A stretch of DNA of 22,380 bases. Origin: Nanobdellota archaeon. GTDB taxonomy: Archaea; Nanobdellota; Nanobdellia; Woesearchaeales; JAHWHD01. Each line of letters opens with the position of its first letter. Position 1 is the stretch's first letter. Positions 4,124 to 22,230 of the stretch are shown in pieces. The notes below the pieces were generated by a model that saw only the letters and a list, made by a program, of their open reading frames with translations, was not told the origin of the DNA and searched no databases. The position numbers and the translations under genes were made by a program. The stretch covers positions 1 to 22,380 of the forward strand of contig JAYENX010000002.1 in the NCBI GenBank assembly GCA_034722435.1, given 5' to 3'.

Positions 4124-4825
4124 CTAATTTCTATACTGTTTTACTATTCTCCAACATCCAACCGTAATTCTAGTTATACGTTTTGTATGATATTTCATTG
4201 ATTGTTTTAGTGGGAATTGGAATTCCCAGTAATGTGTAATTCTAGACTTTCTTTCGTCGGCAAATTTCTGAATGAACTTTTTCGTTGTAGCATTATGCAT
4301 TGAATAAATCGCTTTGCCAATCTCAAAAGCTTTCTCCAAAAACTCTCGATCTGCATTTTTTACTTTAGCCCCAAATGGGGGATTTTGAATCACTGTATCA
4401 ACATTTTCTTTGAAAGAACTCACTTTACATTTTTTTACAATATACTGACTATTTACATTATCTATTATATTCTCCCTTACAATATCCTTCGGGTTATTAT
4501 TGTTATTATCTATACTGCCCCTTACATCTTGTAGAATGTCTTTTATACTGTCTAGATTACTATTGCAGATATCTAACGCATCTTCATCTATATCTACAAA
4601 ATATACATATTTTGCGCCTAATATTAACGCTCCTATGCCTAATATCCCTGTGCCACATCCTAAGTCTGCGATAGTTTTTCCCTCTATATCGCCTTGTAAA
4701 TAGGCATTCCATAGTACTTCTGCAGCTATCTCGCTATCTGTAGGATACTGCTCTAACTTTATTTTTGCATCTTTAAAGACTTTTAATTTCGATAATATTA
4801 TTGCTAATCTTGATTTTGTAACCAT
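4124..4825 (-). CDS. METTL5-family (COG2263-like) SAM-dependent N6-adenine RNA methyltransferase
   Basis: LEQYPTD, DLGCGTGILG and QNPPFG motifs. Confidence 0.92.
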   Translation of the reverse strand: MVTKSRLAIILSKLKVFKDAKIKLEQYPTDSEIAAEVLWNAYLQGDIEGKTIADLGCGTGILGIGALILGAKYVYFVDIDEDALDICNSNLDSIKDILQDVRGSIDNNNNNPKDIVRENIIDNVNSQYIVKKCKVSSFKENVDTVIQNPPFGAKVKNADREFLEKAFEIGKAIYSMHNATTKKFIQKFADERKSRITHYWEFQFPLKQSMKYHTKRITRITVGCWRIVKQYRN

Positions 4826-5460
4826 TTTTATTTCAATTAAGATAACTTACGCTCACTTTTCAATTGTTTTCCATATTTGGAATCATTAAATTCTTTTCAA
4901 TCAATAATCAGTATATGATCTTTGTTTTGTTATTTATGTATTATTTATATTGTATTCGTATAGTATTCACATTCTATTCTTATATTGATATATGTTGCAA
5001 TATATGTTTTGACTATATAAACCTAATCCAATTAGATGAATCTTAAAATTCCTTTATTTGATTCATCAATTACAGCCCTTGTACTCTTAGAATTCTGCAT
5101 TTTCCCATTAAAACAAACATTTTCCTTCATTTGAATTAATAAAATTTGTTATTATGTCGATAAAATATCTATAAATCCAGCACTTACAACCCTTCAAACC
5201 CTTGAAATCGCGTATTTAGTACTTTTTACGGTCATATTTTAATTTTATTCTGTTTGCGATAATTACTACGTTAATTATGTTAAAACCCTTGAATTAAGCC
5301 ATTTCAGACCCTATAACTGAAATATTTAGTTCATTACGTTCTTGTTAATTTCTCTATGAACCTCTATTTAACTCTCATTTTGGGTAATTTTATACTTACA
5401 ATCCTATAATTCCTCTTAATTTATCACAATTCGTGCTGTTATAAGCTAAAAACTTCTGTT

Positions 5461-5491
5461 TTAACTCTCACTTTCGATTTATTTTCATATA
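5461..5491 (+). repeat. 31-bp bipartite repeat, left copy L1
   Basis: TTAACTCTCACTTTCGATTTATTTTCATATA. Confidence 0.85.
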
Positions 5492-5629
5492 TCTGTATTA
5501 TTTATACATATCTGGCATCATATTTCTCGTAGTATGATATCTGTATACACTACTCATTTTCTCTTATTATTTTGATTTATACGTTATATATTGATTTTTA
5601 TTTATTTTCATATAGTTGAACTCACTTAA

Positions 5630-5660
5630 TTAACCCTCACTTTTTACTTATTTTCATATA
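5630..5660 (+). repeat. 31-bp bipartite repeat, left copy L2
   Basis: TTAACCCTCACTTTTTACTTATTTTCATATA. Its reverse complement matches 8889-8920 with 2 mismatches and 1 indel. Confidence 0.85.
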
Positions 5661-5758
5661 TGTGGTATATTGTATTAGTACTATTCTAATAGTGCCTAAT
5701 GATCTATTATTAAATTTGAATAGTTGTCTATTTATTTTCATATACTAGCACTCATTTA

Positions 5759-5789
5759 TTTACTCTCATTTCTGATTTGTTTTCATATA
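5759..5789 (+). repeat. 31-bp bipartite repeat, left copy L3
   Basis: TTTACTCTCATTTCTGATTTGTTTTCATATA, 26/31 identical to L1. Confidence 0.8.
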
Positions 5790-6104
5790 CTGGGGCGAGT
5801 ATGTATATTTTCTATAAACCTGTTCTATCTTATTGTAAGTACAACTGAATTTACCTATTCAATTATTTTCATATATGTCTCATCACTTTCAATTTTACCT
5901 TTATTTCCTCTAAAAACCCACTCTTTCGCGCAGAATATTTCTTGATTTTTTTTAAATGATTTTTATTTTTGCAAAATTTCCATTTGAAATTTTTTAACTA
6001 AGGGGTTTATTTCATTTAGAACTATTTGAATGTTTTTTCTTTATTTTTTTGTTACAAATTTCTTTATTTTTTTAAAATATTTCATCGTTTTTTCACTTTT
6101 TTTA

Positions 6105-6375
6105 TAGTCTTAGTCCTAGTCTCTATTAGTCTTAGGACTATCTTCTGTTAGTCTTATCTTAGTCTCATTTTGGGACTATCATTGCGCGCGAAAGCGCGCC
6201 TCGCGTATTGTATGTGTGTAATTCTTACTTTGTAGTCTTAGTCTCATTCCCTTTATAGTCTTAGTCCTATCTTGGGACTGTCTTAAGTGTGATAGTCTTA
6301 GTCCTATTAAGACTAAGACTGTTTTTTTATCGTCGGCGCGCGCGCATAGTCCTATCTGGGATTGAGACTAAGACT
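6105..6375. repeat. Dense AGTC(T/C) / TAGTCTTAGTC iteron-like array in both orientations
   Basis: 13 AGTC on + and 7 on - within about 270 bp. AGTCTTAGTC at 6106, 6234, 6257 and 6294, inverted at 6311-6320 and 6366-6375. Confidence 0.92.
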
Positions 6376-7062
6376 GGCGTTTTCAACCTGTTTTGAGAAG
6401 TATTTTTTTTCTTTTCCGATTCTTAAGAAACCTATTTTTCCGTCTCTTTCTACCTCTTGTAAAATCCTGTAGAACGAGCTTTTTGAGCATAATCCTTGCT
6501 CATCGACAACCATTTCTTTCATTTGTAATCCTGATATTTCTTCATACTTTTGAATCAGTGAAACGATCAAATTTTTCACATATTCTTTACTATTTCTTGT
6601 GACTGTTTTTAGCACTTTTTGTTGTAGTGCAGTTTGCTGAATTTTGGGTTTTCCATAGGAAACGCCTTTCATTTTTTCTTCCATTATTTTTAGCTTTTCA
6701 GCCATATCCTGGAGAGGATAATGACCATCAATTAACTGCCTTATTTCATCATTTGTAATTGGTCTTTGGTTTTCTAGACCTTCTAATCTCATATTGACTC
6801 TTTGCAGTTCATTATGTGGATAGTGAGACTTATGCTCTAAGTCTAAAATTTTAGAATCAATCCTTTGTATTTCATAGGGTAAATGTGCAAATTGTTCAAG
6901 CCTTCTAAGCCTTTCATCATGCTCTTTATGCTGGCTATGGAAATATTGAATCCATTCACCTACGTTAGTGATATCATTTTTGATTTTAATGAACGCAGAT
7001 TTAAGAAAATTCTGGAATCTATTCCATCTATGTACATCAATATGTTTATCTCTCCACCCCAT
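6352..7062 (-). CDS. Coiled-coil protein with C-terminal winged helix-turn-helix (unknown function)
   Basis: LKSAFIKIKNDI motif, heptad-rich middle, and C-terminal KNLIVSLIQKY...SKSSFYRILQEVE..GKIGFLRIGKEKKYF wHTH pattern. Start placed at ATG 7062 (ORF track: 7104) because TTTATAAA sits at 7085-7092. Confidence 0.85.
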   Translation of the reverse strand: MGWRDKHIDVHRWNRFQNFLKSAFIKIKNDITNVGEWIQYFHSQHKEHDERLRRLEQFAHLPYEIQRIDSKILDLEHKSHYPHNELQRVNMRLEGLENQRPITNDEIRQLIDGHYPLQDMAEKLKIMEEKMKGVSYGKPKIQQTALQQKVLKTVTRNSKEYVKNLIVSLIQKYEEISGLQMKEMVVDEQGLCSKSSFYRILQEVERDGKIGFLRIGKEKKYFSKQVENASLSLNPR

Positions 7063-7148
7063 GTTTTTAAAAAACTCTTTTTTCTTTATAAATCTTTTCA
7101 TCATCTATATTGAAAAATTATTTAAACCAGCATCATAAATATGAAAAT
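7063..7148. promoter_or_regulatory. Back-to-back divergent promoters
   Basis: TTTATAAA at 7085-7092 (about 23-30 nt before ATG 7062) and A-rich BRE plus TTTAAA at 7121-7126 (about 23-28 nt before ATG 7149). The spacing fits leaderless transcripts. Confidence 0.6.
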
Positions 7149-7658
7149 ATGTTTTCAAAATCTCTAGAAATATTGAAACGCTCTTTAAAATCGTCCTTTG
7201 CAAAGATCAAAGAAGAGTTCGAGATGCATCTTTCATCTATTAATGACAATACTGGAGAAATTGCTGCCAACGCTGATCACATTTCAGACTTAGAACATCG
7301 TATTGACAAATTAAACGAGAAATTAGAGGAGATTCTCATGATTTTATCTCAGTTACCAAAAGAAACAAAATCTTTCATTATAAAGCCTCTGACGATAAAT
7401 GAGAAGCAAGTACTCATGGGTGTATACACTTCATCTAAACCTATTTCGTATGCAATTTTAGCTCAGAATTTAAACATTTCAGAATCTGTTGTGCAGTCAT
7501 ACGTCGAAGGTTTAATCTCAAAAAAGATACCTTTGATAATCACTCACAAGAATGCAACACCTTATCTTTCTTTGGATACTGACTTTAAGGAAATGCAGGC
7601 AAAAGAAAACATTTTAGGTATTGAGCAGAAACACTTGAACGAAACTTTTGAAAATTGA
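7149..7658 (+). CDS. Coiled-coil protein with C-terminal HTH/winged helix (unknown function)
   Basis: LKSSFAKIKEEF motif, coiled coil ISDLEHRIDKLNEKLEEI, and HTH LTINEKQVL...ISYAILAQNLNISESVVQSYVEGLISK. Start placed at ATG 7149 (ORF track: TTG 7110). Confidence 0.85.
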   Translation: MFSKSLEILKRSLKSSFAKIKEEFEMHLSSINDNTGEIAANADHISDLEHRIDKLNEKLEEILMILSQLPKETKSFIIKPLTINEKQVLMGVYTSSKPISYAILAQNLNISESVVQSYVEGLISKKIPLIITHKNATPYLSLDTDFKEMQAKENILGIEQKHLNETFEN

Positions 7659-7774: not shown

Positions 7775-7802
7775 AGTTCGCACAATATACATTGTGTGTA
7801 CC
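7775..7802. other. dif-like Xer recombination site (11-6-11)
   Basis: Minus strand GGTACACACAA-TGTATA-TTGTGCGAACT. The arms are 8/11 inverted to each other, the site is 21/28 identical to E. coli dif GGTGCGCATAATGTATATTATGTTAAAT with an identical spacer, and it lies 50 bp upstream of the xer ORF. Confidence 0.75.
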
Positions 7803-22113: not shown

Positions 22114-22230
22114 GCCGAGGTCGCATAATCTGGTATTGCGCTAGATTGCTATGTACTATCAGTGCATCAGATCACTACGCAATTATCTAGTGACCTTAGG
22201 GTCATCGGGGTTCAAATCCCCGCCTCGGCG
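22114..22230 (+). tRNA. tRNA-Ser(GCT) with a canonical 37/38 intron (22152-22184)
   Basis: GCCGAGG/CCTCGGC + G73, CTAGA/TCTAG anticodon stem, long variable arm TGACC/GGTCA, BHB helix TTGC/GCAA. Spliced length 84 nt. Confidence 0.95.

Follow-up and report, generated by a model that had tools for sequence, protein, structure and literature searches.

A linked pair of coiled-coil/winged-helix proteins in Nanoarchaeia and the heptamer array that accompanies one of them

The ParR/parC and TubR/tubC systems contain iteron arrays upstream of their own operons. In the replication terminator protein (RTP) of Bacillus subtilis, a winged helix is combined with a long helix for dimerisation, and the protein binds oriented repeats in a unique region of the chromosome. 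Regulators of the MarR, ArsR/SmtB, PadR and GerE kinds dimerise via helices that flank a winged helix-turn-helix (HTH), and Hop2-Mnd1, a eukaryotic meiotic recombination factor, is a paralogous pair in which each member combines a winged helix with long coiled coils. Archaeal proteins of the Sso10a type are also small and carry a winged HTH and a coiled coil; they are reported to bend DNA and to have chromatin roles, not to serve a single dedicated repeat array (PMC4941522). The present study concerns two adjacent genes, called A and B here, and the repeats around them in one entire 22,380-bp contig (C2; hereafter, the window) from a genome of 1.30 Mb in 60 contigs (94.5% complete). The source organism is an uncultivated brine archaeon. 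A brine metagenome is the only sequencing run that contains the window's DNA, with no RNA run listed, and its relatives are labelled Candidatus Woesearchaeota or Nanoarchaeia.

A and B belong to a previously undescribed superfamily, whose members this study found only in Nanoarchaeia (DPANN). The two proteins are homologous, their genes are linked across relatives, gene A has been flipped in the window's lineage, and an array of AGTCYYA/TCCCA heptamers, the class-2 repeats, co-occurs with A. On balance, we lean towards the reading that A, perhaps with B, forms a coiled-coil assembly on this genome-unique heptamer array and that the assembly controls at least their own promoter. The parts of the locus are listed below (aa, amino acids; ORF, open reading frame; BRE, transcription factor B recognition element).

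6352..7062, minus strand: gene A, 236 aa (ORF, family alignment, AlphaFold2 model, Foldseek search, 341 homologues).
Gene A, aa ~10-59: N-terminal helical module with the signature SFxKIKxD...W, followed by coiled-coil helices to aa ~133.
Gene A, aa 145-223: C-terminal winged HTH with the motif TRNSKEYVK...CSKSSFYR.
6970..7005, minus strand: LKSAFIKIKNDI motif of A, core of the N-terminal module common to A and B.
7149..7658, plus strand: gene B, 169 aa (ORF, alignments, AlphaFold2 model, Foldseek search, profiles).
Gene B, within one long helix of aa 2-68: N-terminal module with invariant H27, N32 and E37.
Gene B, aa 83-142: winged HTH like those of MarR, ArsR and GerE, with the conserved C-terminal tail FKxxQAKENILGIEQ after it.
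7185..7220, plus strand: LKSSFAKIKEEF motif of B (sequence and family alignment).
7063..7148, no strand: divergent promoter spacer of 86 bp, with one BRE/TATA-like box per gene.
6105..6375, no strand: class-2 array of 19 AGTCYYA/TRRGACT heptamers, with palindromes and GC hairpins.

The ORF listing gave 6352..7104 (minus) and 7110..7658 (plus). Alignment with homologues places the true starts at ATG 7062 for A (MGWRDK...) and at ATG 7149 for B (MFSKS...), and the spacer is therefore the 86 bp from 7063 to 7148. On the minus strand it holds the BRE/TATA of A, GAAAAGATTTATAAAG, at 7084-7099, 23 nt ahead of A's ATG; this element corresponds to the AAAGATTTAAATAA box that an alignment of 65 relatives shows to be conserved upstream of A. 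The TATA-like box of B, TTATTTAAA, lies on the plus strand at 7118-7126, 22 nt ahead of B's ATG. A preliminary description of this DNA had proposed a head-to-head pair across an 86-bp spacer with two TATA boxes, and that layout holds for the window. It had also noted that both proteins open with the same motif, continue as a coiled coil and end in different winged HTH domains; LKSAFIKIKNDI and LKSSFAKIKEEF are indeed present, and the structure models and fold searches agree.

In the AlphaFold2 models, which were built with family alignments, A has a helix at residues 10-59, more helices to residue 133 and the winged HTH at 145-223 (mean predicted local distance difference test score, pLDDT, 77), while B has a single helix at 2-68, then the winged HTH at 83-142 and, at the C-terminus, two short helices (mean pLDDT 87). 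Both HTH domains show the helix-helix-helix-strand-strand order of a winged helix with pLDDT ~90, and Foldseek matched them with probability 1.00 to the Hop2 winged helix, RTP and PadR (A) and to AdcR, SmtB and HlyU (B). For A, the top match was the Hop2 winged helix 2mh2 (E 4.3e-4), with RTP and PadR/LmrR also near; for B, the nearest folds were those of MarR/ArsR proteins such as AdcR and SmtB, with a resemblance to GerE. As modelled, the winged HTH domains of A and B thus belong to different types.

The preliminary description could assign neither protein to a named family, and profile and fold searches likewise returned generic winged HTH matches without assigning either to a known regulator family. 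Both window proteins stayed below the Pfam gathering thresholds (MarR, HTH_11, HTH_24, PadR and GerE families); the top HTH match was HTH_11 for B (16.8 bits, cutoff 25) and HTH_32 for A (13.6 bits, cutoff 33.7). HTH matches of 46 relatives of B and 40 of A, ranked by E-value and not by member bit score, were sub-significant, the best being HTH_24 at E 3.7e-6. A sequence-profile search of the PDB gave only coiled-coil noise and weak HTH matches, and no description of these protein families was found in literature searches.

The evidence for paralogy runs through a third family. Six loci from other orders of Nanoarchaeia contain a B-like gene, B' (195-265 aa), and in all six it adjoins a second gene, A' (185-214 aa). 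The N-terminal signature of A' is that of A, conserved Trp included (...SFSKIKEDxxSVxxWIxHL...), and its HTH is of the B type (LTPMERxLVWALL...STVRGQ...). Accordingly, A' aligned with the N-terminal 64 columns of A (hhalign 98.5%, E 2.8e-15) and, over 146 columns, with the full length of B (97.4%, E 9.3e-12). Among all six-frame ORFs (at least 50 aa) of the window's genome, the two best matches to a hidden Markov model of A' were A (3e-10) and B (1.1e-5). Outside the order, weak matches to the B profile spanned the HTH and tail only. Because the bridging family matches both, A and B, by profile comparison, share one ancestor in the N-terminal module, and the A'/B lineage shares it over the whole length. 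The paralogy suggested in the preliminary description is thereby upheld for this module; a direct comparison of A with B was insignificant, and A has a winged HTH of a different kind. Woesearchaeales genomes hold, at other places, ORFs of 113-160 aa whose match to the A profile is confined to its winged HTH, which favours acquisition of this domain in Woesearchaeales by a domain swap over plain divergence.

As judged from these alignments, the duplication that gave the pair is ancient. The LKSxFxKIK-type motif is the conserved core of both families, more than would be expected by chance. A joint profile of the module, made from the N-terminal 75 residues of groups A, A', B and B', matched 787 protein clusters (50% identity) with E<=1e-3 among 1.84 billion representatives, and the module was N-terminal in all 150 of the matches listed, in proteins of 60-274 aa. 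Members open with a helical module of ~65 aa (L-x-x-S/A-F-x-K-I/V-K-x-D/E) that continues as a coiled coil; a variable linker then leads to a winged or plain HTH at the C-terminus. The four groups A, A', B and B' share the helix signature L-x-x-[SA]-F-x-x-[IV]-K-x-[DE] at the N-terminus, its extension into a coiled coil, a length of 160-270 aa, a C-terminal HTH and an adjoining paralogue. ORFs that comprise the N-terminal module without an HTH also recur in Woesearchaeales (L063:5630-5830, L075:13543-13767, G120:C30:29821-29985 and other ORFs of 62-87 aa); some of them lie only a few kb from B where A is lacking. Such proteins could be partners or antagonists of B.

The linkage of A and B was followed in 121 genomes of the order, 91 of them of high quality, and in 80 public loci; two unpublished genomes, G092 and G112, contributed one extra flip example and one extra entry in the B tally, respectively. 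B is present in 103 of the 121 genomes (82 of the 91 of high quality), nearly always as a single copy, and A is present in 78, with a strong match (E<1e-30) in 36. In 35 of these 36 genomes B is the immediate neighbour of A. The exception, G027 (94% complete), carries a shortened A of 182 aa (G027:C15:24441-24977; E 1e-30, profile positions 1-166), and no match to B was found anywhere in that genome. A also stands beside B in 79 of the 80 public loci, the remaining one (L143) breaking off inside A. The preliminary description had named unlinked genes in relatives as a refutation; linkage is borne out, in other orders too. The neighbourhood is fixed in the public loci: o1833, o2525, in some cases AMMECR1, RpoL and a methyltransferase gene, all on the minus strand, are followed by A and B, then by a Xer gene on either strand and, further on, PAC2.

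The orientation of the pair is less constant. Seventy-seven of the 80 public loci have A and B in tandem, A before B, with a median spacer of ~60 nt, and L143 has the same orientation up to its end within A. Among these loci the head-to-head form is restricted to the two nearest relatives of the window, L079 (75% identical) and L080 (50% identical); in the order sample it occurs in G013, G016, G032, G076 and the same-genus G092. In the six loci of other orders the pair is convergent or in tandem as B'->A'. In the flipped form, gene A and its TATA box alone are reversed; B, the methyltransferase operon and the array have not moved, and the array keeps its position and strand relative to the methyltransferase gene in the window, L079, L080, G016 and G076. 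The head-to-head layout is therefore a recent local flip of gene A with its core promoter and is not ancestral, a conclusion that rests on L079 and L080 independently of G092. The ancient inverted duplication put forward in the preliminary description is contradicted by the tandem orientation of 78 of the 80 loci and by the convergent or B'->A' pairs of other orders. Adjacency has lasted through every change of orientation (tandem, divergent and convergent), so co-transcription cannot explain it; this suggests a functional coupling of A and B other than co-transcription.

The class-2 repeats follow gene A. The 19 heptamers at 6105-6375 compare with 0.1 expected, and no comparable cluster exists in the 1.3-Mb genome. 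In tandem loci, a conserved block of ~130 nt ahead of A's TATA box carries ATTCCCA/AGTCCCA heptamers 11 bp apart and then the AAAGATTTAAATAA box. A typical array has five copies, an A+T-rich centre (...ATTTATCGnCTA...) and four further copies. Under a strict test (exact TCCCA runs of at least three copies spaced by 10-12 nt), 49 of 77 loci had an array no more than 400 nt from A, and none of 17 loci with B alone had one; the remaining 647 kb of flanks held five. A chromosome-wide scan of G098 (1 Mb) returned one array at the A locus and one short array elsewhere. At the matching place, L079 and L080 have AGTCCCA-TT-TGGGACT palindromes and AGTCTTAGTCTCATTCCCA units; the AGTCYYA cluster of the window is the counterpart, in its lineage, of the 11-bp-phased TCCCA array of other Woesearchaeota. 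It now lies behind the 3' end of A, and takes in the final ~9 codons of that gene, because A was flipped. Four of the six loci from other orders have different 11-nt-phased repeats upstream of A' or B'. These patterns point to an operator-like array suited to a DNA-binding domain that is specific to the lineage; in Woesearchaeales, the likely binder is A. The preliminary description had each winged HTH reading one of two repeat classes; for A and the AGTC/TCCCA class, the link holds as one of co-occurrence only (49 of 77 A loci against 0 of 17 B-only loci).

Two further features of the array region were noted. GC-only hairpins or palindromes, GCGCGCGAAAGCGCGC and GGCGCGCGCGC, occur inside the array at 6186-6201 and 6336-6346 in a genome of ~30% GC, and the array of L080 holds a similar GC-rich segment, gtgcgcagagcgcgctacgcgc. 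Directly beside the heptamers lies a stretch of ~150 nt of near-pure A+T, both in the window (5940-6100) and in G098 (854.2-854.36 kb).

The favoured reading can be put as a sequence of events. An ancient duplication gave the pair, whose adjacency was kept class-wide. The A lineage of Woesearchaeales has a different winged HTH, and along with it goes an array of AGTCCCA/ATTCCCA heptamers one helical turn (11 bp) apart, typically of 5+4 copies, directly upstream of A's BRE/TATA. We infer that A binds this array, that it pairs with B and that regulation follows: oligomers of A, held together by the coiled coil and probably joined by B via the homologous N-terminal modules, would occupy one face of the array cooperatively. 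Each chromosome would carry one such nucleoprotein complex, which would control the A(-B) promoter and may also play a structural part at this fixed site. In the lineage of the window, an inversion in place turned gene A round together with its core promoter, giving the head-to-head pair and leaving the array behind A's 3' end.

Several observations weigh against this reading. The direct A-B comparison is weak (BLASTP found a 9-residue motif only, E 0.25; hhalign gave probabilities of 34%, 10% and 8% with progressively deeper alignments), so that the homology is transitive and, for A, limited to the N-terminal module. About one quarter to one third of the order's genomes have B without A, and B is therefore not dependent on A. 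Strict phasing fails in 28 of the 77 A loci, and the window's own array is irregular, with 6-7 nt and palindromic spacings and no clean 11-bp phase. Finally, flipped genomes down to 50% protein identity retain the array though it is off A's promoter. This suggests that simple autoregulation is not the sole function of the array.

A second class of repeats (class 1) and the Xer gene enter the alternative explanations.

4844..5888, plus strand: left class-1 repeats, all oriented alike, in the interval that separates the methyltransferase gene from the array.
8890..9092, minus strand: right class-1 repeats, inverted, to the right of the Xer gene.
7853..8701, plus strand: XerA-type tyrosine recombinase (Pfam PF00589 and PF13495), beside B in most relatives in either orientation.

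The class-1 repeat has the core ACTCTCACTTT within a 31-nt unit ending in TTATTTTCATAT. It is conserved as 3-10 same-orientation copies between the methyltransferase gene and the array, with inverted copies to the right of B/Xer in many loci. The 8-mer CTCACTTT occurs at 4419, 4852, 5467 and 5636 (plus) and at 8907 and 9260 (minus) of the window, and at 853.7 and 857.1 kb in G098; the cluster is the sole one of its kind in the window's genome and in G098, and its copies point inwards from both sides of A-B-Xer. In G098, three class-1 copies fall within the coding sequence (CDS) of the methyltransferase, spaced by 73 and 107 nt and hence in different reading frames. Several relatives also carry copies within this CDS in differing frames, which suggests selection on the DNA itself. 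Class-1 clusters are present in some genomes that lack A (L063, L072 and L073) and are therefore not dependent on A; their distribution over related loci yielded no evidence tying them to B specifically, nor for the proposal that B is their reader. A palindrome, TTCGCACAATATACATTGTGTGTA, was noted at 7775-7802, 50 nt upstream of the Xer gene.

These repeats could indicate that the locus is a landmark of chromosome maintenance (centromere-like, a terminus or fork trap, or a dimer-resolution site), where A and B coat the array, the inward class-1 copies mark a unique site and self-regulation is secondary. We regard this as unlikely, although much agrees with it. Both repeat classes cluster at this locus only, in the window's genome (G000) and in the near-complete G098; class-1 copies point inwards from both sides of A-B-Xer in many loci, and those inside the methyltransferase CDS imply selection on the DNA sequence; the array persists in flipped genomes away from A's promoter; a Xer gene is conserved nearby; nearly all genomes have the pair, in about one copy; and the iteron arrays of the ParR and TubR systems offer a precedent. 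However, no partition NTPase adjoins the pair, and among the long-contig genomes searched 25-44% of the chromosome separates the locus from orc1, which puts it neither next to the origin nor across from it. In the one genome used for skew analysis (G098, a 1.0-Mb contig), GC skew was uninformative: GC and ORF-strand skew drifted monotonically, with no signal at the locus. A crude CAAT-N6-ATTG pattern for the window's dif-like palindrome had no consistent match near Xer in the 80 loci, L079 and L080 included, and, because ten genes are syntenic here, the adjacency of Xer may be plain inheritance. The more far-reaching proposal, in which the pair, its array and the flanking class-1 repeats make up an undescribed, Nanoarchaeia-wide maintenance site that works without a canonical ParA/SegA motor and has A and B as its dedicated DNA-coating heterodimer, we also consider unlikely. 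The same synteny makes adjacency alone weak evidence, which speaks for another alternative, in which A and B are ordinary independent transcription factors, autoregulated homodimers with regulons of their own, kept together only by inherited synteny or co-transcription. The winged HTH folds, generic ones like those of MarR/ArsR and PadR, and the genomes with B alone would suit it. Nevertheless, it seems to us quite improbable: adjacency outlasts tandem, divergent and convergent changes class-wide, the homologous N-terminal module suggests a common oligomerisation surface, stand-alone modules without an HTH exist, some near B in A-less genomes, and the array with A's motif is essentially limited to A's own locus.

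Replication provides a further context. The locus was considered as an Orc1/Cdc6-dependent origin and rejected, with elements of the origin recognition box (ORB) type found beside orc1 on another contig. The orc1/cdc6 gene lies at C28:230-1444, at the start of the 40-kb contig C28, with PolD genes after it and a TTCCACAGGAAAC...GGGGT element upstream. An ORB-looking element, GTTCCACAGGAAACTTAGGGGT, was noted just upstream of orc1 at C28:140-170 (L001); together with orc1 at the contig start, it makes an oriC at this contig edge likely. G098 has ~300 nt of A+T-rich DNA next to orc1 at 496.5 kb, bordered by two ORB-like elements in inverted orientation, 358 kb from the A-B locus. A second, Orc1-independent origin captured from a plasmid, with the repeats as iterons, an AT-rich stretch and A and/or B as initiator, would fit the near-pure A+T stretch by an iteron-like array and a winged-helix gene in both the window and G098, and the inverted class-1 repeats flanking the region. 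We think this highly improbable, since the elements beside orc1, which we take to be canonical ORBs, stand with an AT-rich stretch elsewhere in these genomes and both repeat classes differ from them, Pfam searches found no helicase, primase or ATPase domain in A or B, the chromosomal position is fixed with host-gene synteny across the order, and the locus gives no skew signal.

A gene for SMC near the locus raised the possibility that A and B are its accessory proteins ScpA (kleisin) and ScpB. Neither matched the corresponding families (PF02616/PF04079), and A reached only E 0.12 against ScpB. Genuine ScpA (45.8 bits, contig C56) and ScpB (113.7 bits, contig C58) are encoded elsewhere in the same genome, and A and B are therefore not SMC partners. 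In the long non-coding flanks of the window and seven relatives, no Rfam family was found at gathering or E<=1. Further along the window, at 22114-22230 (plus), Rfam matches a tRNA of 117 nt (45.3 bits) that ARAGORN did not report and that probably carries an intron.

In sum, this study defines an N-terminal module (787 clusters at 50% identity), an ancient duplication with class-wide linkage of the products, and, in one paralogue, a change of domain that goes together with a new repeat array unique in the genome. DPANN genomes are tiny, so a near-universal, single-copy and uncharacterised DNA-binding pair likely does something basic. A and the TCCCA/AGTCYYA array form a candidate protein-DNA pair that could be tested in vitro without cultivation. 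If the complex does mark a chromosomal site and is more than self-regulating, it would offer a way into chromosome organisation or segregation in Nanoarchaeia.

The described systems resemble this pair only in part. Sso10a proteins are crenarchaeal, and no sequence or fold match between them and A or B was retrieved. The winged HTH of B matches the fold of AdcR, SmtB, ZitR and HlyU (E ~2e-4 to 3e-3), with HTH_11, HTH_24, Sigma70_r4 and GerE below Pfam thresholds, and that of A matches PadR, LmrR, Fur and BlaI (E ~1e-2), but these regulators have no counterpart of the N-terminal module. Hop2-Mnd1 is likewise a pair of paralogues and acts on DNA as an obligate heterodimer, whereas A and B are known from sequences and single-chain models. 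The domain order is also reversed, the winged helix being N-terminal in Hop2 and Mnd1, and the match of Hop2 to A covers a 63-residue winged helix only (24% identity; template modelling (TM) score 0.79 on the target). RTP (1bm9 and 1f4k; ranks 2 and 6 for A, E ~1e-2) shares with A the joining of a winged helix to a long helix, but the folds match poorly (TM 0.47), the helices come in a different order, and neither the distance from orc1 nor the skew of G098 places the A-B locus at a terminus.

The comparison with ParR/parC and TubR/tubC concerns the locus as a whole. No ParM, TubZ or ParA is found in the conserved neighbourhood (methyltransferase, RpoL, AMMECR1, Xer and PAC2), and no sequence homology of A or B to ParR or TubR was detected; TubR (6aht) ranks only 49th in the Foldseek list of A. 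ParR is a ribbon-helix-helix protein, and A and B carry an N-terminal coiled-coil module that both ParR and TubR lack. Unlike those systems, the A-B locus is chromosomal and syntenic across the order. The likeness is in the layout: in each case the gene of a small DNA-binding protein lies directly downstream of direct repeats spaced by a helical turn, and a two-block array is at or near the promoter, one array per replicon. In most loci, the 11-bp-phased TCCCA array stands upstream of A's TATA box, where, by analogy with ParR and TubR, cooperative autoregulatory binding would be expected.

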